Shown here piece after piece: positions 4,018 through 25,881 of a stretch of 55,721 nt of DNA. The DNA comes from Nitrospirota bacterium (GTDB lineage Bacteria > Nitrospirota > Nitrospiria > Nitrospirales > UBA8639): the NCBI GenBank assembly GCA_003696975.1, contig RFGT01000122.1, positions 1 through 55,721 of the forward strand, given 5' to 3'. The notes under the pieces are model-generated. The model saw nothing but the letters and a program-made list of their open reading frames with translations, was not told the DNA's origin and did not search any database. A program made the translations under genes and the position numbers. Position 1 is the first letter of the stretch. Every line of letters starts with the position of its first letter.

Positions 4018-4908
4018 ATGGGATCTCCGCTCTTTGGCTTGGACTCCAGGCGTCAAGTCAATTGGGTTGTTCTCGCGGATCTCATCCGTCTCTCGAACCA
4101 AACCGGCACGTGGCTTCTCATGTTCCCCTCGTTGTGGGCTCTTGTTCTGGCTTCTCGCGGCAAACCTTCCCCATTACTCTTGGCGATCTTTATGTTAGGA
4201 GCCTTTATTATGCGGAGTGCCGGTGTGGTGATGAACGATCTCGCAGACCGGCAAATCGATCGTCAGGTGACACGCACAAAAACCCGTCCCTTGGCTCGAG
4301 GAGCGCTGTCCTTGCGGCAGGCTGTCATTGTACTAAGCGGTCTCTTGGTTTGCGCCGCCGCTTTGGTGAGTCTGCTTGATCCCCTCGTCATCGCATTAAG
4401 CCCAATCGCCTTGGTCCTCGCCGCAATCTACCCTTTCACCAAGCGATTCTTCGCCTTCCCCCAGCTTTTTTTGGGATTGGCATTCGGGTGGGGAACACTT
4501 ATGGCCTGGGCGGCAGTACGCCACACGCTTGAACTCCCGGCTTGGTTGCTTTTTGCTGCCACGGTCTGCTGGGCATTCGCCTATGACACGATTTATGCTC
4601 TCCAAGACCAAGAAGATGATCGCCGAATCGGCGTCAAATCATCCGTCCTAACTCTTGGGCCTTGGGCTTGGATAGCCATTGCCGTCGCTGAGGCCATCAT
4701 GCTGATACTGTTAGCCACTGTGGGTTATAGCCTGGACCTTAACATAGGCCACTTTCTTGTTCTGAGCGGACTGGCGGGATTTCTCTGGTGGCAAATTTTC
4801 TCTCTGCGACAAGGGACCGTTACTTCTTCTCAGGCCTTTTCCCTGTTCCGCCAACATGTGTGGGTCGGAGGAGCCATCTTGGTCGGCCTATGGGTTGGCT
4901 CAGTGTAA
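4018..4908 (+). CDS. ubiA: 4-hydroxybenzoate polyprenyltransferase (UbiA family)
   Basis: Both UbiA signature blocks are present: NDLADRQIDRQVTRTKTRPLARG and YDTIYALQDQEDDRRIGVKSS. The protein is multi-pass hydrophobic. The motifs fit UbiA (ND..DR..D..V.RT..RPL..G) better than haem O synthase CtaB/CyoE. Confidence 0.85.
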   Translation: MGSPLFGLDSRRQVNWVVLADLIRLSNQTGTWLLMFPSLWALVLASRGKPSPLLLAIFMLGAFIMRSAGVVMNDLADRQIDRQVTRTKTRPLARGALSLRQAVIVLSGLLVCAAALVSLLDPLVIALSPIALVLAAIYPFTKRFFAFPQLFLGLAFGWGTLMAWAAVRHTLELPAWLLFAATVCWAFAYDTIYALQDQEDDRRIGVKSSVLTLGPWAWIAIAVAEAIMLILLATVGYSLDLNIGHFLVLSGLAGFLWWQIFSLRQGTVTSSQAFSLFRQHVWVGGAILVGLWVGSV

Positions 4909-4919
4909 AAGGTGCGTTC

Positions 4920-5960
4920 TTATTCTGGCGGAGGAATAGGGTGATCCGGTCTGGGAGCTCGGAGTGTGTCGAGGAACATTGTGAGGGCAATGGCATCGGA
5001 TTCACTGATCCCCAAGTTGGGCATCCTCGTGTGCTTCTTAATGCCTTGCGGATAGAGAATCCAGCGGTAAATCCAGGTCTTGTTTAAACGAAACCCTGCT
5101 CGATCCAAAACGGGCCCTACAACCCCTCCCTCTCCTCCAATGCTATGACATGCATGACATCCATACTTATTGAAATACAGATGCTTACCCTGCCGTGCAA
5201 GGGTCGCCCGTTCTTCCTCGGAAAACGATGAGAAATCAGGAGGAGAAATTTGAGTCCGTTTGGGGCGCTTGGTAAAATTTTCAAGCGCTTGCTTGGCAGC
5301 CTCTAACTTGGCTACAGCTCGTTCATAGGTTTCCTCTTCAGGCAAAACAACTTCTTCGTACTCTTCATCGTCGTCGAAATTTTCCTCGTCCGCTTCTTCA
5401 GCCCTGGCAGCCTCTTCTTCCTCCAGTTTGGCGAGAGCCGCTTCCATCGCCTGTTTGGCTTGATCGTGTTCCTGCTGTGCCGCAGCCAGTTCAGCCTCGA
5501 GTTGCTTGCGCCGACCTTCAACATCGTAGGTGAGCGACCCACCATGCAGTCTGCGTACATACCCGACGATTGACCACAGTTCTTTTTCCGACAAGGTATA
5601 CTTAAACGTGGGCATCGTCGCGACGGCAAAATAGTCTTCATCGTCTATGACTGCCGGGTCCGTGGTATCTCGCATGTCTCGGGAGATCGTGTTGAAAATC
5701 TCTTCATCGGAGAAGGTGGACATAGTCGACGATTCCGAAAGGTCCCGAGGGCGCGGGTCCGGCATATGTTCCCAATTGTAGCCTTCTCCTTGCCGTCCAT
5801 TTTCGCCATGGCAGTGCATGCAGTAATGTTCATAGAGCTTTCGGCCCCTTGCGGTCATTTCATCCTCAAACAGCACACACCCATTGATCCCCAGAAGCCC
5901 CACGACCAGAGCTCCCACCAGTCCGACCATAGCCCGCTTGAGACCGCTCCATTCCTTCAT
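4920..5960 (-). CDS. membrane-anchored dihaem c-type cytochrome with an acidic coiled-coil linker
   Basis: It has an N-terminal TM segment (AMVGLVGALVVGLLGI) and two CxxCH motifs (CMHCH, CHACH) in separate class-I-like domains. The domains are joined by a roughly 90-aa Ala/Glu-rich helix and acidic stretch (EEEEAARAEEADEENFDDDEEYEE). It is the last gene of the minus-strand operon. Confidence 0.85.
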   Translation of the reverse strand: MKEWSGLKRAMVGLVGALVVGLLGINGCVLFEDEMTARGRKLYEHYCMHCHGENGRQGEGYNWEHMPDPRPRDLSESSTMSTFSDEEIFNTISRDMRDTTDPAVIDDEDYFAVATMPTFKYTLSEKELWSIVGYVRRLHGGSLTYDVEGRRKQLEAELAAAQQEHDQAKQAMEAALAKLEEEEAARAEEADEENFDDDEEYEEVVLPEEETYERAVAKLEAAKQALENFTKRPKRTQISPPDFSSFSEEERATLARQGKHLYFNKYGCHACHSIGGEGGVVGPVLDRAGFRLNKTWIYRWILYPQGIKKHTRMPNLGISESDAIALTMFLDTLRAPRPDHPIPPPE

Positions 5961-5964
5961 GGCC

Positions 5965-6828
5965 TCAACCCCGCCGAAGTTTTCGAATCAAGAAAAATTC
6001 AAACGCTGCCGCAATGGCAATGCCTAACACGACATACCCATAAATGGAGTTGTCCGGTGGAGGCTCAGCCCGAATGTACCACCATGATGAGACGGCTTTC
6101 TGCGACCCTTTCTCTTTGACACTTCCATCAGGGAGAAGCTGGCCATCCCAAAAGGCAAAAGCCACGTTGGTCCATTTTCCCGGTATGATCTGGACGTCAT
6201 GTTCATCCGAGGTTTGCAAAGGTCGTGAAAATATCACGCGCCACGTACCATCCCTCCAAGCTCCCGTCGCGGAGACGTCTTGGTGTTTTTGGGCGTGAAG
6301 GGTTTTGAACCCCTTGGCATTCATATCCACCGCCGAACCTTGACTGTTTTTCCAATACCAAATATTGACCTCTCCGCCTTCGACCTGCAGCATTTCCTGA
6401 GCATGGGCAAAGTGAGACTTTTTATCCCCCACCATAAACTCCAACGCGGCTGCGTCAGCGTCATCTTCCGTGGGATCTTGATATTCCAGTAAGATGGCCA
6501 ATTCCTGACCATTGTGCAGGCCGCGTACCTTTACAGATTTGACCGTCACTTCTTGAATACGTTGAGGCCAATGCACTTGCGGGGCCAATTGAAACTCCGA
6601 TGCGGGAACGGTATCCCATGTAGGAGCAAATGGATCATCGGTAGGAAGCGGGCCATCGGATAAATACAACCGGACCGCAACACTTGCCTCTTTCTTCTCA
6701 GGGTCGGGATCACCCCCCCATGCGGGGAGACCGTGCCCCGCTACGATGGCTGCGGTTATCAAGATCCCCAGGAGTCGTCGGTGGACCATATATCCCTCAG
6801 TTTTCCTCATCGGTATCGCACTTCCCAC
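5965..6828 (-). CDS. EB_dh (ethylbenzene dehydrogenase gamma / NxrC-like) haem-b-binding domain protein with C-terminal TM anchor
   Basis: The body reads like the EB_dh family of type II DMSO-reductase gamma subunits (WDTVPASEF ... VKVRGLHNGQELAILLEYQD ... NIWYWKN ... GTWRVIFSRPL ... VAFAFWDG). It has a signal-like N-terminus (start may be the ATG at 6789, MVHRRLLGILITAAIVAG). A C-terminal hydrophobic helix follows (IYGYVVLGIAIAAAFEFFLI). Confidence 0.7.
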   Translation of the reverse strand: MGSAIPMRKTEGYMVHRRLLGILITAAIVAGHGLPAWGGDPDPEKKEASVAVRLYLSDGPLPTDDPFAPTWDTVPASEFQLAPQVHWPQRIQEVTVKSVKVRGLHNGQELAILLEYQDPTEDDADAAALEFMVGDKKSHFAHAQEMLQVEGGEVNIWYWKNSQGSAVDMNAKGFKTLHAQKHQDVSATGAWRDGTWRVIFSRPLQTSDEHDVQIIPGKWTNVAFAFWDGQLLPDGSVKEKGSQKAVSSWWYIRAEPPPDNSIYGYVVLGIAIAAAFEFFLIRKLRRG

Positions 6829-6833
6829 CCGCT

Positions 6834-7565
6834 TTATTCCTCTTCTTCCCAGGTTCGCGGAGATTGTCCAGCCCCGTCATATTCCCCCATGATGATTTTC
6901 CAAATCCATTCATCCGAGAGTTCGAATTCCCAACGAGGCATGGCAGACCTCCAAGGCATGGCTTCCACAGGGAGTCCGACACCACCCTTTTTGATTCGCC
7001 AGAAGAGATAGGATTCTTGGAGCTGCGCAATAGTTCCTGGATCCCTGAAGTTGGCCGGCGGAGGGTTAAACCCGACTGATGCAGGGCCTTTTCCATCAAA
7101 GTTTGCCCCGTGGCAGGGAGAACAAAAGGCGGCATAGAGCCCTTTTCCCACCGCGATGTTCTCCGGAGTCTTCGGGTAGGGATTGGATAATCCCACAAAC
7201 TCTCCCGGCGGCGCGGGATGAATAGTACGATTCTCCACAGGAGGCTGGTCACTCGGAACCAATCTCGTATAGGTCTGCCAACCCACGAGCAGAGGAAACA
7301 GAATGAGGACCAACATTCGAGCGGTTCTAGCCATTCCCACTTGGCCCTCTCCCGTCAAAAATCGCGTGATGGGCCCCATGAACGCATTGAGGGATTCGCC
7401 GCTTATGGTGTAAAAAATCAAAATCGCGCTTAACGTCAGTGCGAGATAAAGATAGATCAGACTCGCTGGGAGAGGCGCGGTAAACAAAGGCAGAACAAAC
7501 TTTAAAACGACATACATCCCCACCAATATTACCGCCGCTGTCGCGAGTGGTCCTTTCATTGGCAC
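6834..7565 (-). CDS. monohaem c-type cytochrome with three N-terminal TM helices
   Basis: Three hydrophobic segments are followed by a soluble domain with one CxxCH (CSPCH). The gene sits 5 nt upstream of the next gene. Confidence 0.8.
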   Translation of the reverse strand: MPMKGPLATAAVILVGMYVVLKFVLPLFTAPLPASLIYLYLALTLSAILIFYTISGESLNAFMGPITRFLTGEGQVGMARTARMLVLILFPLLVGWQTYTRLVPSDQPPVENRTIHPAPPGEFVGLSNPYPKTPENIAVGKGLYAAFCSPCHGANFDGKGPASVGFNPPPANFRDPGTIAQLQESYLFWRIKKGGVGLPVEAMPWRSAMPRWEFELSDEWIWKIIMGEYDGAGQSPRTWEEEE

Positions 7566-7637: not shown

Positions 7638-8243
7638 CTACCGGTCGTGAGAGACCACAGCCACTTGGACCTCATCTTCTTGTGTGCCCATCTTGAGAAC
7701 GTCTTCCACCTTAATACTAATAGGGGCTCCACTCATCTTTTGGAGAAACGCGATAACGGAATAAATCTCCTGTTTCGTGAGCCCAATTGGATCCTTGTTA
7801 ATGTATGGCATGCGGGCCGGATATTCCTTCGGGGGTCCATTGTGCCGGAAATCGAGATAAATATAGGCTTGAGGTTGAGTGAGACTTTCATAGATAAACT
7901 CGGGGGTCAACTTGGCACCAATCCCTTTCAAGTCAGGACATCGAGCGGACTCACTCGGGCCAATGGAATGGCAGAGGGCACACTGCCCCTTACTGAAAAA
8001 GATCTTCTGTCCAATAGCCGCCAAATCGTCCGGTGTTTTAACCTTGGTGATGTCAAACGTCTCAATGGCTGGAGGAAGCGAAGGCATCTGGGGAACTCCT
8101 AAGGCAATTAAGCTGAACGTCCCCAATACAATCACCACAAATCCCACGACTCGGACGAACATCGCACGGATGAACAACAGAATAGCGATTCCACATCCTA
8201 CGACAATCAAACCAATCAATTGGAGCAAGGCGACTTCGCTCAT
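7638..8243 (-). CDS. monohaem c-type cytochrome with two N-terminal TM helices
   Basis: Two hydrophobic segments (LLQLIGLIVVGCGIAILLFI, VVGFVVIVLGTFSLIALGV) are followed by CALCH. Confidence 0.8.
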   Translation of the reverse strand: MSEVALLQLIGLIVVGCGIAILLFIRAMFVRVVGFVVIVLGTFSLIALGVPQMPSLPPAIETFDITKVKTPDDLAAIGQKIFFSKGQCALCHSIGPSESARCPDLKGIGAKLTPEFIYESLTQPQAYIYLDFRHNGPPKEYPARMPYINKDPIGLTKQEIYSVIAFLQKMSGAPISIKVEDVLKMGTQEDEVQVAVVSHDR

Positions 8244-8320
8244 GTATTCAGATTTCCTCTCACGGTATATACTGCCTGTTTCGCAGGCTTATCGTATCTC
8301 CCACCAGTTTGTGCCTTAGG

Positions 8321-10264
8321 CTACCGTTCATGGACACGAGGAGCTCCCCCAGCCATGGCAGGAGCCATCCCTCCGGGGACATCAACAGGTTCTGAGCGGG
8401 AAATCGGTTTTCCCGGCTCATGCTTCCCTTTGTCACCCATTGTGGCTACCCAGAAAATGAAGGCCACCAACAAGCAAAAGACAAACGTGTTGAGCGACAT
8501 AAACGCGGCGGCATATCCCAGCGCCGGAGAGTAGGCATATTCCGAGGTGTCGCGCATCACACCGTAGATATGCCAGTGGACGCGGGAAGAGGATCGGGCA
8601 TAGCCCATTAGGGACATTAACAGGATCACCATCACAGCGTTCGACACCAAGCAATACCCTGCTCGCACGGGCATTTGGCCCCAGATCATCTCCGCGGTCG
8701 TTTTGGCACTTTTCATCAGCAGTGCGGTCAACGGAGTAAAGGTCAACATAATGAACAAGACAATGAGCACCTGGGCCACCGAGAAGTAATTGATGCGGAT
8801 GATCGCGGGAACAAAATAGCCCCACACGCCAAGGATGATGACCGCAATGCCAGCCAGAATCAGCAGAGCCCCCATGACGGCTTTGGCGAGTCGCGCCCAC
8901 GTGGCGGTCTCTTGCTTGCCTGCACGCCAATACATAATAAAACTCATGAATGTGACCAAGATCATCAGGTTGGACACTGTCATCTTGGCGGACATTACAC
9001 CAAATACCCCAAGCAGGGGATGGTGAGTGCCTCCCATTTTCCTTGCCTCTTCAAGACTTGCCACGAGGGAATGGGGAGTCATCCACACGCCCAGGCAAAC
9101 CATCAGCACAATGAGCATGGCAAGAATGGGCTTTCGGTATTGGTGCTCAGCGCCGGGGATTCGGTGTGTGATCCCCATCCAGAAATAATAGTTGGCCCCT
9201 AGGAACAATACGCCGATCAGCATAGCCTGGAGAATGAAGAGCCACGCCAGGAATCCACCCATGAGGGTAATCCCCATCTGCTGATTGTATTGATAGATTT
9301 CGCGCATCAGCCAGTAGCCTGCGAAGGGCAGCGGGAGCATCCCAAAGACCCCAATAAAATTCCCGACATAGCCCATCCAGTCATAGTGCTCTCGCTCTTC
9401 GCGAGACCCCGCCAAGAGGTACCGAATACCCGCATAGGCTCCGCAAATGAATCCCCCTAATACCACATTCGCGATCAAGCGATGAATATTGACCGGCCAC
9501 CAGGTAGGATTCCAGGTGGCGGCCCAGGCCTTTTCGATCGCGGTTCCTTCCGCGATTACCACGGGGCTCGCCTGAAAGGTAGCCCATGCGTTGGGGACGA
9601 TCATGATGAAAAAGGCGAAAATATTAAGCAAGAATCCGAGAACGAGGTGGAACCCCTTTTTGTTCCCCTGCATGGCATCCCATCCGTACCAGTACAGATA
9701 CAGGGTGGCCGTTTCCAACAAGAACAAGATGCAATACACGATAAATGACGGGAAAAAGATGTCGGTGAGATAGGCCATGAGCTTGGGATAAAACCCGATC
9801 AACAAAAACAGCAAGATCCCCCCAAACAATGCTGTCGTGGCATAGGCCGACGTCAACAATTTGGTAAATTCTTTCGCGAGCTTGTCATATCGAGGATCTT
9901 TGGTTTTCCAACCTACCAACTCACATACCCAGGCAAAAATGGGAACTCCCAGCACAAATCCAGCCAACAAGAGATGTTGCTGCGCGATGACCCAGATAAT
10001 ATTGCGACTTCCCAAGCCCGGAATATCGCGATATTCGACACTCATTGCCTTTTCCGCTCCGCTCTGCGCCATGGCAACCGCGGAAAGCACAAAGAGAGCG
10101 CCCACCACTATCACAAGCCCGAGAATGAGGCTGCCTCTCCCTGATGGCATCCAGTGTCTCCAGCTAGTCCTTGCATTGTCCTGGTCCATATCGCCTTCCC
10201 TCATAGGCATGGAACCGTTAATGCTCATGATTGCCATGACTATGGTCATCATGAGAGTGGGCAT
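8321..10264 (-). CDS. cytochrome bd-like oxidase, CydA (subunit I) homologue, extended form (paralogue A)
   Basis: CydA-like landmarks are present: AQQHLLLAGF (TM1 His), FLLETATLYLYWYGW (TM3 Glu), NIHRLIANV (TM5 His). I count about 13-14 hydrophobic segments by eye, against 9 in canonical CydA. The Q-loop looks collapsed. The start is uncertain: 10264 overlaps the upstream gene, and alternative ATGs exist, e.g. 10210. Confidence 0.8.
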   Translation of the reverse strand: MPTLMMTIVMAIMSINGSMPMREGDMDQDNARTSWRHWMPSGRGSLILGLVIVVGALFVLSAVAMAQSGAEKAMSVEYRDIPGLGSRNIIWVIAQQHLLLAGFVLGVPIFAWVCELVGWKTKDPRYDKLAKEFTKLLTSAYATTALFGGILLFLLIGFYPKLMAYLTDIFFPSFIVYCILFLLETATLYLYWYGWDAMQGNKKGFHLVLGFLLNIFAFFIMIVPNAWATFQASPVVIAEGTAIEKAWAATWNPTWWPVNIHRLIANVVLGGFICGAYAGIRYLLAGSREEREHYDWMGYVGNFIGVFGMLPLPFAGYWLMREIYQYNQQMGITLMGGFLAWLFILQAMLIGVLFLGANYYFWMGITHRIPGAEHQYRKPILAMLIVLMVCLGVWMTPHSLVASLEEARKMGGTHHPLLGVFGVMSAKMTVSNLMILVTFMSFIMYWRAGKQETATWARLAKAVMGALLILAGIAVIILGVWGYFVPAIIRINYFSVAQVLIVLFIMLTFTPLTALLMKSAKTTAEMIWGQMPVRAGYCLVSNAVMVILLMSLMGYARSSSRVHWHIYGVMRDTSEYAYSPALGYAAAFMSLNTFVFCLLVAFIFWVATMGDKGKHEPGKPISRSEPVDVPGGMAPAMAGGAPRVHER

Positions 10265-11159
10265 CTGGCGTGGCAGACATCGATGTCTGCTGCGCTGCTC
10301 CTTCCACCGCGGAGGAGCGAGATGATTGGGCTGATTCAGCTTTGCTTCTTCCTCCTGATGAGGAGGCCTGCTCCTTCGTCAACTCTTCTAAGGTTAGCTC
10401 AGCTTGCGCGATGACTTGTTCTGCCTTGGTAATCACTTCCTTGGGATTGACCGGTTTCTCTTTTTTGGCCACATGGACAAATTCGTAGTCTTCATGGGGA
10501 TGAGGAGTGCTGACAGGCAAGAACCCCCAAAATAGCAAGATCAAGACTGTCCCCACCCCTACAAACGCTGTCAACATAAGCGGTTGATCCGAAGGAATTC
10601 TGAGCAGATCCCAGCGATAGACGACCTCTTGTAATGGCCCTTCTACTGGCTGTCCAGCACGAACGTGACGGTTGGCCAGAAGCCCCAACCCATACAACCA
10701 TCCCATTAACATAAGGAGAAATACCACAGCCGCGACACTCCCCCAGAGGGTCAGCTCCAAGGCAATTTGTTCGGCAATAGGGAGAGCCGGTATCACACTT
10801 TCTTTAAGAAACGCGACAAAGCTCTTGGCCACCGATTCAGCGGTATGAGCTACCCCCCCTATCACAAGATACATAACCGGGAGATAGACAACACTCCACA
10901 GGGCCCATTGCCACCAGAGGGTTACCCCAAGTTGCGCGGGAGGTTCGATTCTCAATCGCTCAAGAAATACGGTCCTGGCGCATAATCCCAATGCCCATAT
11001 ATCGATAGGAATTGACACGAGCAACAGAATTGCCAATCCCAATCCTTCCCACGGATGCAGACCGGCAGCTAATAGAAGCAACGCAATGGCCAGCTTGAGT
11101 GGAAATCCTGTCCAGAAGGTCGGCCAGACAATTAACAAGCCTAGCTTGATGTTTCCCAT
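10218..11159 (-). CDS. polytopic membrane protein of unknown function with His-rich C-terminal tail
   Basis: About 6 hydrophobic segments are followed by a helical/disordered soluble tail ending in PDAHSHDDHSHGNHEH. I recognise no family. It lies between the cytochrome b gene and bd-like paralogue A, with a 13-nt gap on the upstream side. Confidence 0.6.
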   Translation of the reverse strand: MGNIKLGLLIVWPTFWTGFPLKLAIALLLLAAGLHPWEGLGLAILLLVSIPIDIWALGLCARTVFLERLRIEPPAQLGVTLWWQWALWSVVYLPVMYLVIGGVAHTAESVAKSFVAFLKESVIPALPIAEQIALELTLWGSVAAVVFLLMLMGWLYGLGLLANRHVRAGQPVEGPLQEVVYRWDLLRIPSDQPLMLTAFVGVGTVLILLFWGFLPVSTPHPHEDYEFVHVAKKEKPVNPKEVITKAEQVIAQAELTLEELTKEQASSSGGRSKAESAQSSRSSAVEGAAQQTSMSATPDAHSHDDHSHGNHEH

Positions 11160-11172: not shown

Positions 11173-12285
11173 TTACTCCAGAAATTCGCGATTGATAATC
11201 GCCGACACGGTGAACACCAAAATACCTGTCATCACCACAATCCAGCCAATCAACGCCACCGGCCGTTTAAAAATATTGCGTTCAGGACTCCGGTCAATAA
11301 AGGGAAGCGCAGCCAGAAACGCCAAAAATGCTCCGGGGATGGCCACAGCACCAAGAAATTGTCCAAATTCTCCGGAAAAAACTTTCAGGCGCAACATTTG
11401 GAACAAAAACAAAAAGTACCATTCCGGTTCAGGATGATAATCCCCGGGATCCGGTGTAGCTTCTTCAAGCAACGTCACCGGCTCAATAAATGCCAGCGTG
11501 CAAACAATAAGAAATACCGTGGCCATTGCCACAATATCTTTCCAGACTTGCCGCGGAAAAAAATAATCCGTCTTTGCCTTTAACTCTTCCGGCGTCCCTC
11601 GAAACGGACCGGCTGGACCAGCTTTTCTGAATAAAAACAGATGCAATCCCGCTAGTCCCATCAAGGCTGCGGGAAGAATCATGACATGAATTACGAAAAA
11701 CCGGCTCAACGTCATTTGTCCTGGGGTCGGCCCCCCTTTCAAAAACCGGCTCAAGAAATCCCCAATGAGCGGGGTCTTGTCCATAATCTCCACACCAACC
11801 ACGGTTGCCCAGTAGGCGCGTTGATCCCATGGAAGCAAGTACCCGGTAAACCCAAAGGCCATCACTAATCCAAATAAGGCTAACCCCACTAGCCAAATCA
11901 GCTCCCGCGGTTTCTTATAGGCACCCCAGAGAAAGACTTGAGACATATGGGCATACACCATCACCACCATGGCTGAAGAGCCCCAAAAATGGTAGCTCAA
12001 TAGAAACCACCCGTAATCCACTTCATGAATAATGTATTGCGTGCTGGCATAGGCATGATCTGTACTGGGCACATAGTAAAACATCAAGAGAATGCCGGTA
12101 ATCGCCTGCATAATAAAGATAAAAAGCAGACACGAGCCAAATACATACGCCCAACGCGACCCGCCAGGAACGGGTTCATTCAACATCTTGGCTTGAATTG
12201 TCTTCAAGCCGACCCGTTCATCGACAAAGTCGACAACTTTTTCGAAGAGGCTTTTTTCAGCGATGTCAGCCTTGCCATTCATCAC
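11173..12285 (-). CDS. cytochrome b (fused b6-like N-terminal part plus subunit-IV-like C-terminal part)
   Basis: Two bis-His pairs are present on the B and D helices (HFWGSSAMVVMVYAH; HVMILPAALMGLAGLH). The PEWY Qo motif is present (PEPEWYFLF), as is a typical N-terminal region (WAYVFGSCLLFIFIMQAITGILLMFYYVPS). Confidence 0.9.
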   Translation of the reverse strand: MMNGKADIAEKSLFEKVVDFVDERVGLKTIQAKMLNEPVPGGSRWAYVFGSCLLFIFIMQAITGILLMFYYVPSTDHAYASTQYIIHEVDYGWFLLSYHFWGSSAMVVMVYAHMSQVFLWGAYKKPRELIWLVGLALFGLVMAFGFTGYLLPWDQRAYWATVVGVEIMDKTPLIGDFLSRFLKGGPTPGQMTLSRFFVIHVMILPAALMGLAGLHLFLFRKAGPAGPFRGTPEELKAKTDYFFPRQVWKDIVAMATVFLIVCTLAFIEPVTLLEEATPDPGDYHPEPEWYFLFLFQMLRLKVFSGEFGQFLGAVAIPGAFLAFLAALPFIDRSPERNIFKRPVALIGWIVVMTGILVFTVSAIINREFLE

Positions 12286-12313: not shown

Positions 12314-13258
12314 CTACAAGAGCCGAATCTGATCCTTCACCCCTGCCTTGTATTCAATGTCGATCACCTTGATCTCACCTGCCGCATCAACTTTCATGGG
12401 CAGCACATCCAAAGGCCGGGGAGCTGGCCCATCCAGCACTCTTCCTGCCGCGTCATAAATACTCAAGTGGCAGGGGCACAAAAATACTCCATCAGGAAAA
12501 TTCTTGGTTCGGCGCCACTTGTAGCCACATCCCAGATGGGGACACTTCCCTGAATATCCTATATACGGAGCAGTAGCCTTGTTGACCCAGATGACATTGC
12601 CCTTTTCATCGTAAAATTTTTTATCTTTCCCTCCATAGACCGCTTGTTGGATCTCAGGCGTGGCCTTGACTACCCAAACATTTTTCTCAATCTTCTGTTC
12701 CGGCATGAAGGCTTCTTTCAATCCCCGAATAAATTTAAACTGATACCCAATTCCCTCTTTTTTGATCTTTTGAACATTGCCAACAGAAAACCAAGAATTG
12801 TCGAACGGCCGATACATTGGCTTCATCAGATACTTCAGGACCGGATACACCAAAGGAAGGGCAATCAAGGCGCCAATAGCCTGAGTCATATTGGCAAAAA
12901 AAGTTCGCCGGGGAACATCACGTTCCAATTTGGGGAACGGCACTAAAACTTCGCCAGGCTCCACGTGCAATCGATCTTCCAAATGCGCAATCTCCACATC
13001 TTTGATGGTGACATATTCGTCTCGCTTCAGAACCGGAAACTGCTGGAAATCAGCAGCGGTACACCGCAAGAGGATTTCTTCTTCGTTGACAACTTGCTGA
13101 ATTTCCCTGACAGGAACCTGTCGCTCATATCCTTGACCATTGGCCTCCTTTACCACCACATGACTGACTTCATGCGACAAGGGATCGACAATAACCTTAG
13201 AGATACGGCCGACTTCTCTGTCAGCGCACCTGGCTTTCGCGGTAATTTTGGGCTGCAT
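12314..13258 (-). CDS. Rieske [2Fe-2S] protein with N-terminal PRC-barrel-like extension
   Basis: Rieske boxes CPHLGC and CPCH are present. A twin-arginine-like anchor PRRTFFANMTQAIGALIALPLV sits at about residue 116. It is preceded by about 110 aa resembling a PRC barrel (REVGRISKVIVDPLSHEVSHVVVKE ... QVPVREIQ). An in-frame TTG at 12928 would give a conventional short Rieske protein. Confidence 0.85.
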   Translation of the reverse strand: MQPKITAKARCADREVGRISKVIVDPLSHEVSHVVVKEANGQGYERQVPVREIQQVVNEEEILLRCTAADFQQFPVLKRDEYVTIKDVEIAHLEDRLHVEPGEVLVPFPKLERDVPRRTFFANMTQAIGALIALPLVYPVLKYLMKPMYRPFDNSWFSVGNVQKIKKEGIGYQFKFIRGLKEAFMPEQKIEKNVWVVKATPEIQQAVYGGKDKKFYDEKGNVIWVNKATAPYIGYSGKCPHLGCGYKWRRTKNFPDGVFLCPCHLSIYDAAGRVLDGPAPRPLDVLPMKVDAAGEIKVIDIEYKAGVKDQIRLL

Positions 13259-13299: not shown

Positions 13300-14124
13300 T
13301 TATTGCATTTTAATGGGACGGGGTGTATTGACTGACGTATCTTTTAGCGTTGAAAGAAAAGCCACCAAGGCGTCAATTTCTTCCGGGAACATGAGGTCCT
13401 TATATTTATTAGGCATCTTGCCTTTTTTGTATGCCTTTTCGAAGCCCTCAGCCATCCAACTCTTAGGATTAAGGATCTTCTGGCGGATCTGTTCCGGCGT
13501 CATGAGATTACCGATATTGTCCAAAGCAGGCCCTCGTTTTTTCCCACCCTGCCCAAACAACTTATGGCAGTTGTAACACTCCTGAAGTTCCCATTGTTCG
13601 CGTCCTAAGGCAACCAGATCACCGGATGTCGCAGACGACGTGGGACTACTGGCCTCAGTTTCTACTTTTACTTTGGCCACAACTTTTGCCCCTCCGCCTA
13701 AGGCAGCGAGTTGTTTGGCAATGGCTTGAGCCTTTTCGTCGAGCGCTTTCGCGCGCGCCAACAGTTCTTCCACTTTACCCTGCTTGGTTCGCGCCCGCCT
13801 GGCTTTCAGCAATTTCTCGATTTTCCCTTTTTCGACTTCTGGGTCATATTGCGGCAACCACGTGGCTCCGGCAATATAGACGCCCGAAATAATCACGTAA
13901 AATAGGATAAGCCCTACTACAGCCTTTGAGCCTTCCAGTCGCTTCATGGACGGGGCGTCCAAGAGAATAAAGACAAACGCTCCAAGCATGGCGTATATGA
14001 AAAACATGACCTGGAAGACTGGCGGGAAATGCGTGAGTTTCGCCACGACGACCAGCACAATTCCCACCAGAACCCCAAAGACCAGTTTCTTAACCACGAC
14101 TCTGGCAAATCCGTTCTGAACCAT
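13300..14124 (-). CDS. membrane-anchored monohaem c-type cytochrome with coiled-coil spacer
   Basis: The longest ORF (to 14226) overlaps the upstream gene. An ATG at 14124 (MVQNGFARV) lies 20 nt after the upstream stop. The protein has three hydrophobic segments, a Lys/Ala-rich helix, then CYNCH. Confidence 0.8.
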   Translation of the reverse strand: MVQNGFARVVVKKLVFGVLVGIVLVVVAKLTHFPPVFQVMFFIYAMLGAFVFILLDAPSMKRLEGSKAVVGLILFYVIISGVYIAGATWLPQYDPEVEKGKIEKLLKARRARTKQGKVEELLARAKALDEKAQAIAKQLAALGGGAKVVAKVKVETEASSPTSSATSGDLVALGREQWELQECYNCHKLFGQGGKKRGPALDNIGNLMTPEQIRQKILNPKSWMAEGFEKAYKKGKMPNKYKDLMFPEEIDALVAFLSTLKDTSVNTPRPIKMQ

Positions 14125-14143
14125 ACGTGCTTTTCTCCAACAC

Positions 14144-15895
14144 TTACTCCGCTCCGGCCGGAACAGGAGCCCCTGGTGCGACAGGCGATTTCGCCTCCGA
14201 CGCCCGCAGGGTGATGAGAATGGCAAAACTCACAACAATATAAAAAATCAGCGTCAATCCCGTAATCCACCACGCGGAGTAGGCCAACGTAGGCGTATAC
14301 GATTCAGCCGTGAAGTCCGGCAATAGATTGTACACGTGATAATATTTCCTCGTTAATGATCGTACTGCTCCCATCAATCCCATCGTCCAAATAGCACTGA
14401 ATGCCAGAAACACCAGCACGAACTGAGAAGCAAAATCGATCTTCCCCCAAATAATCGTGCCCCGGCGAATAGCGCGATTGTATAAGATATAGTTGACAAC
14501 CGTGAGAAATACCAGCGTAAATGCCGCCGCATTCTTGGCTGGCATGAGCGCGAGCTCGCTTGCCCACGAAGGCAACTCCAACTCCTCCGTGGCCAAAGCC
14601 TGGGTAGCCACAAATCCATGGGGGGTCATCCAGATGGCATTAGCCACCACAATCATGAAGAAGCCCACCTTGATCATGGTAAATGACGAAACAGTAAAGT
14701 TTCTTAACCCAGGTAGCTTGCTCAGCACCGGAGGAAGAATAACAAGTAAAGCCAACACGATCAGCGATTGCCACTCCGGAGGCGGAAACACTTTCCATGT
14801 GAACCCCATGATCGCCGGCATTCCAATAACCGCCACTACGACAAGTCCGGAAATACGCACCCGTTCGACTCCCTCAATCCGCTTCATGCTCAGCCAGATA
14901 TAGTAATTACTGGCCAAAAAGATCAGCCCCACCATTGCCCCTTGCATTTCAAAGAACATGGACAGTTGATCGGCCATCATGTAGGGACAGATGGAGGCGT
15001 CATAGTCACACAATTCATACGCCAGCAAATATCCCATGAATGGGAGCAAGAGCAAGGCCCCAACTCCAATGAGATTTCCCACGAATCCCATCCAATCGTA
15101 ATAGGAACGCTCTTCGTCTGATTTGGCCCCCATGTACATGTAGGCGGCAATCAGTCCGGCAATGAATCCTCCAAACGTTACGTTACCCACCAAGCGGTGG
15201 AGGTTGAGCGGCATCCAACTATAGTTGGCCATCTTGTCCCACAGTCCAGCCGACTGGATGAACTCGACCAGCGAAATCCCTTCTGCGGATTTCGCTGGTG
15301 TATTCATAAACGCCGTCGGCCCGTCAATGACGAACAACGTCAGAGTTCCTATGAGATTTAACAATACACCAAGGGCGATATGACGAGCTTTCTTCTCCCC
15401 TTTCAAGGAATCCCAGGTATAGAAATAGGTGTACAGCACAATCGTCTCGGCAATAAACAAAACCGGATAAATCAAGGCAAACACTAAGAAGAAATGCTTG
15501 ATGAGCCAAGTGGTAAAATCGGGATACGTTGCCAGTAAGACAAAGATGAACAACCCGCCCGTCAACGCCGTCATGCTGTAGAGGATGACCGTGACTTTTG
15601 TCACTTCTTTGGCTAATCGATCATATTTGGGATCACGATTCCGATAGCCCAACCACTCAGACACAACCGCAAAAATCGGAGCGCCCAAGATGAACGCCGC
15701 AAACAAGATGTGAAGCTGCGCCACAATCCATACCCCTGTCCGATTCCCGGTATACGGAAATTCGCTTGGTGGGGGTTCCGGAACCTGAGCATACACTGCC
15801 CCTATGCTTCCGAGCACAAGGAGCCCCATCATTATTCCTAGCAGGAGGCTACGCGTCATTGTTCTCAAGGGTTGTGGCCCTCCTTCTCTTCTCAC
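14144..15895 (-). CDS. cytochrome bd-like oxidase, CydA homologue (paralogue B)
   Basis: It carries the same landmarks as paralogue A (VAQLHILFAAF, FIAETIVLYTYFYTW, NLHRLVGNV, WMTPH). It lacks the extra His clusters of A. The start is uncertain (GTG 15895, TTG about 15868 or ATG 15859; a GGAGG lies between them). Confidence 0.8.
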   Translation of the reverse strand: MRREGGPQPLRTMTRSLLLGIMMGLLVLGSIGAVYAQVPEPPPSEFPYTGNRTGVWIVAQLHILFAAFILGAPIFAVVSEWLGYRNRDPKYDRLAKEVTKVTVILYSMTALTGGLFIFVLLATYPDFTTWLIKHFFLVFALIYPVLFIAETIVLYTYFYTWDSLKGEKKARHIALGVLLNLIGTLTLFVIDGPTAFMNTPAKSAEGISLVEFIQSAGLWDKMANYSWMPLNLHRLVGNVTFGGFIAGLIAAYMYMGAKSDEERSYYDWMGFVGNLIGVGALLLLPFMGYLLAYELCDYDASICPYMMADQLSMFFEMQGAMVGLIFLASNYYIWLSMKRIEGVERVRISGLVVVAVIGMPAIMGFTWKVFPPPEWQSLIVLALLVILPPVLSKLPGLRNFTVSSFTMIKVGFFMIVVANAIWMTPHGFVATQALATEELELPSWASELALMPAKNAAAFTLVFLTVVNYILYNRAIRRGTIIWGKIDFASQFVLVFLAFSAIWTMGLMGAVRSLTRKYYHVYNLLPDFTAESYTPTLAYSAWWITGLTLIFYIVVSFAILITLRASEAKSPVAPGAPVPAGAE

Positions 15896-15912: not shown

Positions 15913-16392
15913 TTAATCGTTGTCAGGAACCCATGCTTTTTTCTCGGGATCGTATTTCAAGCCCTTCAAGCCAAAGGTCGCTTCATAGGCAATCACTTTC
16001 CAGCGTTCATCTTCCGAAAGCTTTGTTTTCCAAGGCTTCATTTTCGTGCCTTTCACCCCTTCGGAAACACGCCAAAACCATTGAGAATCTGAAAAGAGTT
16101 TCATGTGCTCCGTTTGGCGGAAATCTCGGGCGCCCGCCTTCACAGGTTTTCCATCTTTTCCATGACAGCTTGCACAATTGACGTCGATATTCTGGGCCCC
16201 CGTGAAGATGGCTCTCCCCTCTTCTATGATTTTGGGATTATTCCAATAATCCGGCGGCATATGTTTGTCCGCATACTCTGGTGGCGGCGGTGGCGGCGGT
16301 GGCGGCGGGCCAGCCTCACCGCAAGCCGAAAGGGCGAACCCAACAAGGCCAAGTGCAACCATCATGTAGAGACGTCTTCCCCTGTTTCCCAT
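15913..16392 (-). CDS. lipoprotein-type monohaem c-type cytochrome with poly-proline tether
   Basis: It has a signal peptide with lipobox (GFALSAC), a run of ten Pro, then CASCH. A GGAAGGAG Shine-Dalgarno lies about 13 nt upstream of the ATG. It is the first gene of the respiratory operon. Confidence 0.8.
   Translation of the reverse strand: MGNRGRRLYMMVALGLVGFALSACGEAGPPPPPPPPPPEYADKHMPPDYWNNPKIIEEGRAIFTGAQNIDVNCASCHGKDGKPVKAGARDFRQTEHMKLFSDSQWFWRVSEGVKGTKMKPWKTKLSEDERWKVIAYEATFGLKGLKYDPEKKAWVPDND
16280..16306 (-). repeat. perfect 3 x 9-nt tandem repeat (GGTGGCGGC)3 encoding the Pro10 linker
   Basis: Read directly: ggtggcggc ggtggcggc ggtggcggc. It lies inside CDS 15913-16392. Confidence 0.9.
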
Positions 16393-16513: not shown

Positions 16514-17113
16514 TCACGATTTCGCTTTCGTTTTCCCTTTTCCTCCTTTGCCCCCCTTTCCACCCTTGCTCTTGCGTTTGAGCATCATCCTGAAGAGACC
16601 GAGCGCAACTGCCACGCTTCCGCCGATCACTCCATACAACGCCCATCCTCTACTTGGAAGCGGTGCACATTTGCCACCAAGTTGCACAGCCAGAACACGT
16701 TCTGTTGTCTTGTCATGGGGATCGAAATCCACCCGTGCATGCTTTTCATATTCCAAGGCGCGAATGAGTAAAGGATCCCCTTGATTCTCATCATGTAAGT
16801 GGAGCACCACTTTAAAGCGGCCATCCGTATCGGTAACGTCACTCCCTCCAACGGACGCTCTGGTATCTTTGACGATGACTTTAAGTCCCTCAAGGCCTTG
16901 CCCATCTTCCCCGCACACCCGGCCCGTTACCGTAAAGCGATGGTCCACTTCATGAAGCGCCCTCGCTTGGGTAATAGGCAAACTTGCCAGAATGGCGCAA
17001 ATGAAAATGCGGGTGACTGTGGTCGTTCCGGGATATCCCAATGGTCTGCCACGCTCCCTGATCCACCCATGGTTTCCACATTGTTCCTGGAGAGCCCAGT
17101 GGCACCACCTCAA
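16514..17113 (-). CDS. hypothetical exported protein: carboxypeptidase-regulatory-like beta-sandwich, C-terminal TM anchor and Lys/Gly-rich tail
   Basis: FTVTGRVCGEDGQGLEGLKVIVKD ... TDTDGRFKVVL resembles CarboxypepD_reg-type domains. A C-terminal helix (LYGVIGGSVAVALGLF) is followed by KRKSKGGKGGKGGKGKTKAKS. The start is uncertain (a TTG at 17041 would expose a signal peptide). Confidence 0.5.
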   Translation of the reverse strand: MRWCHWALQEQCGNHGWIRERGRPLGYPGTTTVTRIFICAILASLPITQARALHEVDHRFTVTGRVCGEDGQGLEGLKVIVKDTRASVGGSDVTDTDGRFKVVLHLHDENQGDPLLIRALEYEKHARVDFDPHDKTTERVLAVQLGGKCAPLPSRGWALYGVIGGSVAVALGLFRMMLKRKSKGGKGGKGGKGKTKAKS

Positions 17114-17688: not shown

Positions 17689-18699
17689 TTAGGTAGGGAA
17701 CAAGGTGGCACGTACCGTCCCCGTAAAACCTGACCAGGAGCTGAACGTTTCCTCAACGGCGGAGGCTTCGTATCCACAATGCACCATGCAATCGGCACAT
17801 TTTGGATTGCGTCCGGTTCCATAGCGGTCCCAATTCGTTTCCTCCATTAGTTCCCGGAATGTTTCAGCATATCCGTCTTGCAAGAGGTAACAGGGCCTCT
17901 GCCATCCGAAGATGTTATATGTGGGATTTCCCCATGGCGTACACTGATAGTCCCGTTTGCCCATCAGAAACTCCAAAAACAGCGGAGACTGATTGAATCG
18001 CCATGATCGTTTTCGATTGGCAAGCAACCGAGCAAATAATTCCTGTGTCCGATGCCGTGTCAAAAATCCATGCTGATCTGGCGCCTTTTCATAACTGTAG
18101 CCTGGAGAAATCATCATCCCTTCGACGCCGAGTTGCATCATTTCATCAAAAAATTCCCGCAACCGTTGAGGGTTGGCACCGTTAAAGACCGTGGTATTGG
18201 TCGTCACCCTGAATCCTCGTGCCAGTGCCGTTCGAATCGCCCGCACGGCAATATCGTAGACCCCCTCGCGACAGACGGCCAGATCATGCTCTTCCCGCAG
18301 GCCATCCATATGAATGCTGAACGTGAGATACTTGGAAGGGGTATATTCGTGGATCTTGCGCTCAAGCAACAATCCATTGGTGCAAAGATAGACATACTTC
18401 TTGCGTGCCACGAGTCCTCGCACAATTTCCGGCATCTCCGGATGGATGAGAGGCTCGCCCCCAGGAATACTGACGATGGGCGCTCCGCATTCTTCTGCAG
18501 CAGCCCAACATTGTTCCGGAGTCAATCGACGATCGAGAATATGCTCCGGATATTGAATTTTGCCGCATCCCGCGCAGGCGAGATTGCAGCGGAAAAGAGG
18601 CTCCAACATCAATACCAGGGGATAGCGCGTTTCTCCTTTAAGCTTTTTGGTGAGCACGTACCTCGCTACCGTTGCCATCTGAGACAAAGGCACAGCCAT
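17689..18699 (-). CDS. hpnH: radical SAM adenosylhopane synthase (hopanoid side-chain biosynthesis)
   Basis: The radical SAM cluster motif CNLACAGCGK is present, with an HpnH-like N-terminus (ARYVLTKKLKGETRYPLVLMLEPLFRCNLAC). The ATG at 18699 is preceded by GAAGGAG at 7-nt spacing. shc and hpnG lie in the same block. Confidence 0.85.
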   Translation of the reverse strand: MAVPLSQMATVARYVLTKKLKGETRYPLVLMLEPLFRCNLACAGCGKIQYPEHILDRRLTPEQCWAAAEECGAPIVSIPGGEPLIHPEMPEIVRGLVARKKYVYLCTNGLLLERKIHEYTPSKYLTFSIHMDGLREEHDLAVCREGVYDIAVRAIRTALARGFRVTTNTTVFNGANPQRLREFFDEMMQLGVEGMMISPGYSYEKAPDQHGFLTRHRTQELFARLLANRKRSWRFNQSPLFLEFLMGKRDYQCTPWGNPTYNIFGWQRPCYLLQDGYAETFRELMEETNWDRYGTGRNPKCADCMVHCGYEASAVEETFSSWSGFTGTVRATLFPT

Positions 18700-18754
18700 A
18701 TAAAAGCTCCTTCTCTTGCTGAGCGGCACACATGCGGTTTACGACAAAAGCTCG

Positions 18755-18830
18755 TGGAGGCGCCGGGCGGGTTCGAACCGCCGCATCGCAGTTTTGCAGA
18801 CTGCTCCCTTAGCCACTTGGGTACGGCGCC
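18755..18830 (-). tRNA. tRNA-Cys (anticodon GCA)
   Basis: The reverse complement reads GGCGCCGTACCCAAGTGGCTAAGGGAGCAGTCTGCAAAACTGCGATGCGGCGGTTCGAACCCGCCCGGCGCCTCCA. It has an acceptor stem GGCGCCG/CGGCGCC, an anticodon stem GCAGT/ACTGC with loop CTGCAAA, a GGTTCGAACC T-arm, and an encoded CCA. Confidence 0.9.
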
Positions 18831-18901
18831 CCGGGAGGGATTATAACGAGCCTGCTTTCACCAAAACAAGCCACACTGTGAGTTGCGGGGAGATTGTTGT
18901 C

Positions 18902-20065
18902 TCAGAAGGGAAGCATGGGGAGCTCTCGACGAGATGGGATCGATGGGTTTTCAGGAAGGGCGGTCAGTTGTGTAGCTCCCGTCGAAGAAGGGGCAGGGGC
19001 TTCATGGTTCTTCGCCAACAGTTCGACTTCTTCCACAAGCCGATCGATCAACTCCTCCGACCGCACCTTTCGCACGAGCTTGCCTTTTTTAAATAAAATG
19101 CCCATCCCTTGACCGCCGGCAATACCCACATCGGCTTCTTTGCCTTCGCCGATTCCATTCACCACGCATCCGAGCACCGAGACATTGAGAGGCGCGCGAA
19201 TATGGCTCAACCGTTTTTCCAATTCGTTGGCCATCCGAATCACATCAATTTCTACTCGGCCACAGGTCGGGCACGCAATCACATTCACCCCTCGGTGCCG
19301 AAGCTCGAGTGCCTTCAGAATCTCGAATCCCACACGCACTTCTTCAACTGGATCCGCAGCCAACGACACGCGAATCGTGTCGCCAATTCCTTGCGTCAGA
19401 AGCCAACCGATCCCGATCGCTGACTTCACCGCCCCCGTCATGGCCGTTCCAGCCTCGGTAATACCAAGATGAAGTGGATAGTCGGCTTGCTGGGCAAACA
19501 TCCAATAGGCATCCACAGCCGTATGGATATCAGAGGCCTTCAACGAGACCTTCATATTGGTGAAGCCGATATCTTCAAGCGCACGCACCGCATTGAGGGC
19601 TGACTCCACCAATGCTTCCGCCGTAGGATACCCGTATTTTTCAAGTAGGGGCCGTTCCAAAGATCCTCCATTCACGCCAATCCGAAGAGGAATCCCATAG
19701 TCAGTCACCGCCTTGACAATCTCTTGTACCTTCCACCATGGTCCAATGTTTCCGGGATTGATGCGCACACAATCAGCAGTCTTCGCAGCTTGCACCGCTA
19801 AGCGATAGTCGAAGTGCACGTCGGCGATCAAGGGAACAGTCATTTCCGCCTTGATACGAGGCAGCGCGGATGCGGCTTCCCTATCAGGGACTGCCACTCG
19901 AATTAATTCGCACCCTGCTTGCTCGAGTTGACGAATTTGGGCCACGGTCTCCTTGACGTGACCGGGGTGAGGCACAGTCATAGATTGGACAGAAATGGGA
20001 GCCCCTCCTCCGATTTTGACCGAACCTACCTGGATCTGTCTGGTCTTTCGACGCGTAATGTACAT
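18902..20065 (-). CDS. ispG: 4-hydroxy-3-methylbut-2-en-1-yl diphosphate synthase (MEP pathway)
   Basis: The N-terminus is typical of IspG (TRQIQVGSVKIGGGAPISVQSMT). Cluster cysteines are present (IACPTCGR ... GCVVNGIGE). Confidence 0.9.
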   Translation of the reverse strand: MYITRRKTRQIQVGSVKIGGGAPISVQSMTVPHPGHVKETVAQIRQLEQAGCELIRVAVPDREAASALPRIKAEMTVPLIADVHFDYRLAVQAAKTADCVRINPGNIGPWWKVQEIVKAVTDYGIPLRIGVNGGSLERPLLEKYGYPTAEALVESALNAVRALEDIGFTNMKVSLKASDIHTAVDAYWMFAQQADYPLHLGITEAGTAMTGAVKSAIGIGWLLTQGIGDTIRVSLAADPVEEVRVGFEILKALELRHRGVNVIACPTCGRVEIDVIRMANELEKRLSHIRAPLNVSVLGCVVNGIGEGKEADVGIAGGQGMGILFKKGKLVRKVRSEELIDRLVEEVELLAKNHEAPAPSSTGATQLTALPENPSIPSRRELPMLPF

Positions 20066-20075
20066 AAGCGTTGTG

Positions 20076-21974: not shown

Positions 21975-22184
21975 GATTGCGAATTCCTTTCATGGAACAA
22001 ATATGCAGCCCCGACACCTCTTCGCTTTTCCATCGTAACCGACGTTGATTTCGAGAGGCAGTCTCCCACACCAACACCACGCTGTCAAGGTGAAAAGGCC
22101 CCCTTCCCTCGGGTCCTCTCACCTCGAAAAGGCCCTTGTGACCGTTGTATGCAGACCTCAGGGGACCAATGCATGCTGACATGG

Positions 22185-22823: not shown

Positions 22824-22914
22824 GGCACCCACCTCTTCCACCGTTGGTTAGGCTATTAGGACGTTTAGGACCTTTCGTCCTCGACGTGCCCCTTTTCCCT
22901 AGTCTTTCCAGCAA

Positions 22915-23358: not shown

Positions 23359-23458
23359 ACCTTAGCCTATTGTCTGCATTCCTACCAGACTTCTCCCTAC
23401 CAGATAGGTTCACGTACCCGCCGTTCAGGTTCACCACACTTCCCTTAACGGACGCTCC

Positions 23459-24217: not shown

Positions 24218-24259
24218 GTCGCTCTTGCTTGCAAAAACGGCCCCGGAGGTTCACCGATT

Positions 24260-25857: not shown

Positions 25858-25881
25858 GCGGTCCGCCGTATCGGGTCACAT

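Follow-up and report, generated by a model that had tools for sequence, protein, structure and literature searches.

Two families of cytochrome bd-like proteins, OR-N1 and OR-N2, both with 14 transmembrane (TM) helices, have been described by Murali, Gennis & Hemp (bioRxiv 10.1101/2021.01.16.426971). OR-N1 is encoded with petA/petB, and OR-N2 with several cytochromes c and a homologue of EbdC, whose gene is the hallmark of OR-N2 operons. OR-N2 proteins resembling NIDE0901 of Nitrospira defluvii are regarded, together with OR-N1, as the likely terminal oxidase of most Nitrospirales (PMC12342949), many of which lack any other oxidase able to take electrons from cytochrome c (PMC12342949, PMC10579370). 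Lucker 2013 described membrane helices in bd-like oxidases in the place of the quinol-binding Q-loop, and a CuB-like site in NIDE0901 is credited to Lucker et al. 2010 by later papers (PMC8026999, PMC10579370, PMC12342949). The copper proposal was repeated in a 2020 N. marina preprint, in 2023 (PMC10579370) and in 2025 (PMC12342949); those passages of the published account that deal with the ligands give Gln for one CuB histidine and Phe for the histidine of the high-spin haem in related bd-like proteins. Here we compare with these systems a gene, paralogue A, that lies with a second CydA homologue, paralogue B, in a 55,721-nucleotide stretch of contig RFGT01000122.1 from a Nitrospirota bacterium (GenBank assembly GCA_003696975.1); this whole stretch is called the window, and its features are listed in Table 1.

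Family assignment of paralogue A

Gene A is probably, though not securely, the Nitrospirales orthologue of the OR-N2-type (NIDE0901-like) cytochrome bd-like oxidase subunit, with the fold of bd subunit I. First, Pfam matches PF01654 to residues 92–327 only, at 69.6 bits against a cutoff of 26.2, and the same family is matched by paralogue B. Profile alignment with hhalign pairs residues of A with those of E. coli CydA as follows: H97 with His19, Y177 with Glu99, E184 with Glu107, H206 with His126 and H261 with His186. The motifs that a first-pass annotation of the window had quoted as CydA landmarks are all present, starting at residues 94 (AQQHLLL, with H97), 181 (FLLETATLYLYWYGW, with E184) and 259 (NIHRLIAN, with H261), and the profile alignment to E. 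coli CydA confirms these three residues; a further motif, REIYQYNQQMGITL, starts at residue 321.

Second, A carries the OR-N2 residue signature of Supplementary Table 6 (Table S6) of Murali et al.: Y177 at the Glu99 position, E184 at Glu107, H206 at His126, S558 at Glu445, and W564. Its polypeptide has 14 TM helices, assigned by DSSP in an AlphaFold2 (AF2) model, no Q-loop and no CxxCH haem-c motif. Third, multiple cytochromes c and an EbdC homologue are encoded at the locus. Because cluster content and residue signature match the description of Murali et al., we assign A to OR-N2; B fits OR-N1, whose operons carry petA/petB. Like A, the described proteins of this kind (OR-N2, NIDE0901 and clade I of 'TO_1' from Ca. 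Manganitrophus) have 14 TM helices and no Q-loop, and they keep equivalents of His19, Glu107, His126 and His186, with Tyr at Glu99 and Ser at Glu445. Their operons too, Nitrospirales-wide, hold genes for several cytochromes c and for a haem-b protein like EbdC/NxrC. A differs from database OR-N2 entries in being at most 90% identical to them, and the His-rich tail of the protein encoded upstream is specific to its clade. Protein A is thus already known, and nothing substantive sets its gene apart from published OR-N2 orthologues.

Other classes of CydA homologue fit less well. OR-C proteins, in which a CydA with 8 TM helices is fused to a haem-c domain, resemble A in having no quinol site and a presumed cytochrome c donor, but A has no CxxCH within its polypeptide and 14 TM helices rather than about 8, and the domain fused to some relatives of A is a homologue of the separate cytochrome c encoded downstream. 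Nor is A a canonical qOR: the Q-loop with its quinol site is missing from between TM6 and TM7, and Tyr177 replaces Glu99. It is homologous to canonical CydA (E. coli, 6rko/6rx4; G. thermodenitrificans, 5doq) over TM1–TM6, with His19, Glu107, His126 and His186 in common, whereas it has five more TM helices, does not conserve Met393 and Glu445, has no adjacent cydB or cydX, and has cytochrome c partners in place of quinol.

Relatives of A are numerous. More than 3,400 homologues are found in the databases, the best 120 of which are 79–90% identical, with those that are named belonging to Nitrospira or Nitrospirota. Among species-representative genomes, 535 stretches held relatives, of which the best 80 are 77–90% identical and, bar one 'Nitrospinota' metagenome-assembled genome (MAG), are labelled Nitrospirales, Nitrospira or Nitrospirota. 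The orthologue from N. moscoviensis is 83% identical, with full synteny.

Several points weigh against the OR-N2 oxidase assignment. Orthology to NIDE0901 is drawn indirectly from synteny, published descriptions and the 83% identity to the N. moscoviensis protein, and O2 reduction by OR-N proteins from conserved bd active-site residues together with a lack of other oxidases stated in the literature. The equivalent of Glu99 is Tyr, and Met393 and Glu445 are not confidently alignable. The C terminus of A could not be aligned to canonical CydA, and for Met393 M428 and N432 are only candidates. Pfam scans of C-terminal fragments gave no matches, and hhalign of a C-terminal sub-alignment against E. 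coli CydA placed the last TM helix on the TM7 region near Met393 at a non-significant Prob of ~1%. Ser558 falls at the Glu445 position in a weak alignment and in Table S6; RxxWH of A falls on the canonical ExGRQPW motif, GRQPW of 9r2g, in a weak, non-significant HMMER alignment that is in line with Table S6. Because these C-terminal alignments are weak or non-significant, we treat the Met393 and Glu445 equivalences as uncertain, and the same fragment scans and hhalign comparisons do not establish by sequence the ligand replacements in the C-terminal half that are considered below.

Fold and membrane topology

The AF2 model of A, built from a 47-sequence alignment (predicted local distance difference test (pLDDT) 86.5; predicted template-modelling score (pTM) 0.85), has TM helices 1–7 at residues 44–73, 86–121, 124–158, 160–193, 203–232, 255–284 and 288–309, and helices 8–14 at 340–368, 372–394, 424–447, 457–482, 487–518, 533–559 and 582–612. 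In a Foldseek search of the Protein Data Bank (PDB), canonical CydA chains were the sole significant matches and filled the first ten places (E from 1e-8 to 2e-5; TMt 0.5–0.6). Neither sequence nor fold comparison found an OR-N-type structure in the PDB copy searched, and a literature search found no cryo-EM paper on OR-N.

Five helices of A are additional to canonical CydA. The first-pass annotation had read them as a C-terminal extension, which they are not: one is N-terminal (44–73), two are inserted at the Q-loop position (340–394) and two (457–518) lie between the equivalents of TM7 and TM8. The same annotation had described the Q-loop as collapsed to about a dozen residues after the sixth helix. 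The lack of a quinol-binding loop holds, and no Q-loop of normal length appears in a proper alignment, as the alignment with canonical CydA ends at TM6, near the start of the 310–339 segment. The stated length does not hold; the loop after TM6 has about 30 residues (310–339) and is followed by a TM hairpin and a second loop of 29 residues. The Q-loop of A is therefore better called replaced than collapsed. In the second loop, T396, P397, E406 and P416 are invariant or almost so in the alignment.

Beyond this loop, A forms two successive TM hairpins, each of which aligns to residues 444–530 of paralogue B, a region that in B forms a single hairpin (Smith-Waterman z=9.1 and z=15.0, with 0/500 shuffles reaching the score). 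The two hairpins of A align only weakly with each other (z=2). From these alignments, an old tandem duplication of the hairpin in OR-N2, apparently undescribed in the literature examined, is plausible.

Paralogue B is 34% identical to A and has the same fold, the same number of TM helices and the same N-terminal haem and proton-channel residues. The two arrive at 14 helices by different layouts: at the Q-loop position B has four TM helices (including 350–391, absent in A), followed by the single TM7′/TM8′ hairpin, against two TM helices and two hairpins in A. B adjoins the Rieske and cytochrome b genes, not that of the EbdC-like protein. At the position of E. coli Glu107, B has a Glu, E150 (FIAETIVLY), as do B-like representatives, whereas Table S6 of Murali et al. 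gives Gly (G140) for the OR-N1 reference from N. inopinata; either the alignment behind the table differs or OR-N1 is heterogeneous.

Position and conservation of the extra histidines

Five histidines of A beyond the CydA landmarks lie in motifs that start at residues 394 (WMTPH, with H398), 411 (GGTHHPLLG, with H414 and H415) and 559 (SSRVHWHIYG, with H563 and H565). In the AF2 model, with topology set by CydA homology and a tally of lysine plus arginine (20 inside versus 11 outside), all of them are in periplasmic coil or beta segments and none is within a TM helix. H398 directly follows the invariant T396-P397, and the HH pair precedes P416, about nine residues ahead of TM10. The first-pass annotation would have given up its metal site had these residues mapped to opposite membrane faces; the objection falls, because all candidate histidines are periplasmic.

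The extra His clusters had also been described as absent from paralogue B. The B motifs were quoted correctly (WMTPH at 422, LPSWASE at 441, RKYYHVYN at 516), and the alignments pair H414, H415 and H563 with E, L and Y. H398 and H565 have counterparts in B: it keeps equivalents of His19, Glu107, His126 and His186 and, in addition, H426 and H520, so that TPH (H398) and SxxRxx[W/Y]H (H565) are shared between the paralogues, and both histidines are retained in B-like sequences as well.

We scored conservation in a close set of 121 Nitrospirales orthologues of A and in a diverse set of 31 non-B-like representatives of 50%-identity clusters, 26–75% identical to A. The conservation anticipated by the first-pass annotation was borne out in the close set, where all five histidines are invariant (121/121); this carries little weight, since 62% of core columns in that set do not vary at all. 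Across the wider family, represented by the diverse set, it was borne out in part. Landmark ligands are kept in 90% (H97), 97% (H206) and 94% (H261) of sequences, and the O2-site residues H97, E184 and H206 in 68–97%. H415, conserved throughout the OR-N2-like clade at 87% and the 91st percentile of core columns, is the only extra histidine to match the known haem ligands. H565, which belongs to a family-wide motif S-x-x-R-x-x-[W/Y]-H, is kept in 71%, and H398 in 68%, otherwise being mostly R, K or S. H563 (35%; otherwise mostly D, N, Y, F or G) and H414 (23%; otherwise mostly Y, F, Q or S) are at or below the median column. The full set of five is limited to Nitrospirales and a few deeper relatives (representatives P0121, P0122, P0124 and P0126).

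What do these residues do? Most likely, the extra histidines serve as replacement or additional cofactor ligands on the positive (P) side of the membrane, as haem axial ligands or in an electron or proton relay. An attractive alternative to a copper site is that H398, H415 and H565 might substitute for the lost haem ligands Met393 and Glu445, because those two are absent and the histidines stand at the corresponding periplasmic helix ends.

A more sceptical reading, to which we give a real but minority chance, is that function belongs to H398, H415 and H565 alone, H414 and H563 being surface residues of one lineage without any part in cofactor chemistry. Their average or lower conservation outside the Nitrospirales sub-clade, where F/Y/Q/S and D/N/Y/F stand instead, is what this reading predicts. 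Composition is also in its favour: at the His content of A, an HH pair and an HxH motif are each expected about 0.3 times by chance, so neither is unusual. Against it stand the strict invariance of H414 and H563 in the 121 orthologues and their joint retention in P0122, P0124 and P0126, deeper relatives with 46–60% identity.

The copper-site proposal

The first-pass annotation went further and suggested that A binds an extra metal through these histidines. This is not new but the hypothesis attributed to 2010. Applied to A, the published assignment appears to make H398, H414 and H415 the CuB ligands and H563 the ligand of the high-spin haem, if the Gln and Phe substitutions of the published account are those that we see in the alignment. 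In one sub-clade there, P0157 and P0179 included, columns 414 and 563 hold Q and F. P0157 comes from a Nitrospira MAG, in which the gene is not part of a cytochrome c cluster; a Nitrospina origin for it was considered and ruled out, since the sequence belongs to that MAG.

Spelled out in full, the proposal would have H398, H414 and H415 form a CuB-like three-histidine site beside a high-spin haem on H563, with H565 on the low-spin haem, and OR-N2 would be a convergent cytochrome c oxidase of haem-copper type on a bd fold. We think this unlikely. The linear order of the residues, H...H...HH...HxH, is like the ligand order of haem-copper oxidases (helices II, VI, VII and X), and the Q414/F563 sub-clade mirrors the published Gln/Phe substitutions, on the mapping just described. 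The five histidines are invariant in the close set and lie on one membrane face, and H414 and H563 tend to co-occur (P0121, P0122, P0124, P0126).

Yet haem-copper oxidase subunit I is like A only in that linear order and in the presumed substrate pair of cytochrome c and O2. The fold of A is that of cytochrome bd, and the Foldseek match to a haem-copper oxidase is at noise level (bovine COX1, 7vuw_N; prob 0.12, TM 0.13). Candidate ligands of A are in extramembrane loops and a beta-hairpin, outside the TM helices that hold them in haem-copper oxidases. H398 and H414 are 16 residues apart, compared with about 50 for the corresponding histidines of haem-copper oxidases. H398 and H565 also occur in paralogue B, which has none of the others and is not thought to bind copper. 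The low family-wide conservation of H414 and H563 counts against the site, and their invariance in the close set does little to offset it. No copper chaperone was found among the 30 open reading frames (ORFs) of the window scanned with Pfam, a scan that covered ORFs up to 44.4 kb.

Taken together, these results weigh somewhat against a literal haem-copper-oxidase-like site, given the unrelated fold, the loop position of the candidate ligands, two histidines shared with B and two that are poorly conserved. A convergent copper site in the Nitrospirales sub-clade is possible, and we put copper bound by H398/H414/H415 or by H414/H415/H563, next to the His97 haem of Nitrospirales-type OR-N2, at the same low level of probability as the full proposal.

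Electron donor and physiological role

The first-pass annotation suggested that A takes electrons from cytochromes c rather than quinol, and here our results agree with it. Besides the missing Q-loop, four c-type cytochrome genes and the EbdC-like gene flank A, and C-terminal CxxCH domains occur in three or four diverse representatives (P0122, P0124 and P0132 among them). In two deeper relatives these fusions can be traced to the neighbour of A: the fused domain of P0122 is homologous to the cytochrome c encoded directly downstream of A (51% identity, E 5e-43), and P0124 has two fused domains homologous to the same protein (E 1e-17). The P0122 fusion is present in two independent assemblies, and P0122, 60% identical to A, keeps all five histidines. 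By Rosetta-stone logic, fusion of the downstream cytochrome c to homologues of A speaks for electrons entering directly from haem c and not from quinol; gene context and fusions thus support cytochrome c as the putative donor.

P0122 itself (8001-10424 of locus L082) comes from a hydrothermal-vent 'Nitrospinae' bin. Its cluster encodes two MrpD/NuoL-like antiporter subunits, a cytochrome c–EB_dh fusion, a dihaem cytochrome c and a cytochrome b, and resembles the 'TO_2' complex described for Ca. Manganitrophus.

It is improbable, more so than a copper site, that A is no terminal oxidase at all but the membrane module of an alternative-complex-III-like or reverse-electron-transport device, passing nitrite-derived electrons between cytochromes c plus an NxrC-like protein and the quinone pool with the neighbouring Rieske/cytochrome b. 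Lucker 2013 raised such a possibility for bd-like proteins in nitrite oxidoreductase (NXR) clusters, and the genes for the Rieske protein, cytochrome b and OR-N1 lie in the same conserved cluster as A. P0122 is suggestive as well: its gene is clustered with a cytochrome b and two antiporter subunits like MrpD, an arrangement discussed in the literature for bifurcating or reverse electron flow. Against such a device, every canonical quinol-binding element is missing from A, the O2-site residues H97, E184 and H206 are well conserved, and many Nitrospirales have no other oxidase that accepts electrons from cytochrome c (PMC12342949, PMC10579370).

As a terminal oxidase, A would work as follows. 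Electrons, ultimately from nitrite oxidation, would reach it from periplasmic or membrane-anchored c-type cytochromes and from the NxrC/EbdC-like haem-b protein encoded directly downstream. A retains the N-terminal four-helix O2-reduction module (H97, E184, H206) together with the b558 ligand H261, and the haem site that is the homologue of the bd active site would reduce O2. A probably works with or beside B, the paralogue of OR-N1 type, and the Rieske/cytochrome b module that the cluster also encodes.

Gene cluster and surroundings

The order of 11 genes around A is kept in 48/49 related loci with full flanks, including that of N. moscoviensis NSP M-1: cytochrome c, OR-N1 (B), cytochrome c, Rieske, cytochrome b, membrane protein, OR-N2 (A), two cytochromes c, EbdC-like protein and dihaem cytochrome c.

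Table 1. Paralogue A, its segments and residues, and the other genes of the conserved cluster (window positions; residue numbers are those of A)
Feature	Position	Strand	Basis and remarks
Cytochrome c, first gene of conserved cluster	15913..16392	-	Pfam, synteny
Paralogue B, OR-N1-type CydA homologue, 583 aa, 14 TM helices	14144..15895	-	AF2 model, pLDDT 84.8
Membrane-anchored cytochrome c	13300..14226	-	Pfam
Rieske protein of complex III-like module	12314..13258	-	Pfam
Cytochrome b of complex III-like module	11173..12285	-	Pfam
Polytopic membrane protein, 313 aa	10218..11159	-	Overlaps start of A by 47 nt; position kept in 48/49 loci
Paralogue A, probable OR-N2-type (NIDE0901-like) CydA homologue, 14 TM helices	8321..10264	-	647 aa, ATG start; ORF and translation
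H97, equivalent of E. coli CydA His19, active-site haem ligand	9974..9976	-	hhalign; 90% in diverse set
E184, equivalent of E. coli Glu107; Tyr177 at Glu99 position	9713..9715	-	hhalign/HMMER; fits OR-N2 signature, Murali et al. Supplementary Table 6
H261, equivalent of E. coli His186, haem b558 ligand	9482..9484	-	hhalign/HMMER; 94% in diverse set
Residues 310–339, short conserved periplasmic segment (PFAGYWLMREIYQYNQQMGITLMGG) where canonical Q-loop would start	9248..9337	-	DSSP helices 312–326, 328–335; conservation profile
Residues 340–394, inserted TM hairpin in place of Q-loop	9083..9247	-	AF2 helices 340–368, 372–394
Residues 395–423, 29-residue periplasmic loop with T396-P397-H398, E406, H414-H415-P416	8996..9082	-	Coil and short helices, pLDDT 82–84
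H414-H415 pair	9020..9025	-	Aligned residues in B: E and L
Residues 424–559, two successive TM hairpins (424–482, 487–559; as wider segments 416–496, 497–575)	8588..8995	-	Each aligns to the single TM7′/TM8′ hairpin of B
H563-W564-H565, periplasmic beta-hairpin right after TM13	8570..8578	-	Y-Y-H in B; motif S558-x-x-R561-x-x-W564-H565
Membrane-anchored monohaem cytochrome c downstream of A, likely electron-entry subunit	7638..8243	-	Pfam Cytochrom_C
Second membrane-anchored cytochrome c	6834..7565	-	Pfam; syntenic in 49/49 loci
EbdC/NxrC-like periplasmic haem-b protein (EB_dh/DOMON), C-terminal anchor	5965..6828	-	Pfam EB_dh 1.1e-22
Dihaem cytochrome c	4920..5960	-	Two CxxCH motifs; weak NCBIfam cytochrome c matches, all below curated cutoffs

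The EbdC-like protein also matches TIGR03477 (9e-31), at 106.8 bits and so below the curated cutoff of 169.85. For the cytochrome c between B and the Rieske gene, the listed coordinates overstate the gene: its longest form, which opens with TTG, shares 83 nt with the end of B, and translation probably begins at an internal Met (MVQNGF...). The polytopic membrane protein that overlaps the start of A matched no family in Pfam or NCBIfam; it may serve in metal binding or in assembly. Its C-terminal tail is rich in histidine (HSHDDHSHGNHEH; TPDAHSHDDHSHGNHEH), a feature that only the closest, marine or sponge-type, clade of the window shows (14/36 loci inspected) and that N. moscoviensis lacks.

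A divergently oriented gene for a UbiA-family prenyltransferase (4018-4908, plus strand; E 1e-59) adjoins the dihaem cytochrome c that ends the cluster; it may bear on the unusual quinones that have been reported in nitrifiers. Immediately upstream of the cluster, 16514-17113 (minus strand) encodes a small protein that combines a CarboxypepD_reg-like domain with a C-terminal TM helix and a tail rich in (KGG)n. The respiratory cluster is also adjoined by an isoprenoid/hopanoid block (17689-28059, minus strand) with a radical-SAM/DUF3463 (HpnH-like) protein, MlaC, an ORF of the PNP_UDP_1 phosphorylase family and squalene-hopene cyclase, along with IspG-like, Dxs-like, MlaF-like and MlaE-like ORFs named by eye from their translations. 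Farther along, a 503-aa ORF with a TTG start (37859-39370, minus strand) matches Thy1/ThyX at residues about 361–484 only, and has either a long N-terminal extension or an over-called start.

Implications for Nitrospira respiration

In soils, oceans and wastewater plants nitrite is oxidised chiefly by Nitrospira, most of which have no conventional cytochrome c oxidase; this makes the bd-like protein the leading candidate for their terminal oxidase. If the copper site were real, it would be an independently evolved, haem-copper-like O2 centre on a bd scaffold and a third architecture for respiratory O2 reduction; the idea dates from 2010, and novelty would lie in its proof. The window adds one more orthologue to a known family. 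The residue-level results may help in the design of a biochemical test: they rank the histidines as family-wide, clade-wide or lineage-specific, place them in periplasmic loops, and bring out the fusion with cytochrome c and the differing helix insertions of OR-N1 and OR-N2.

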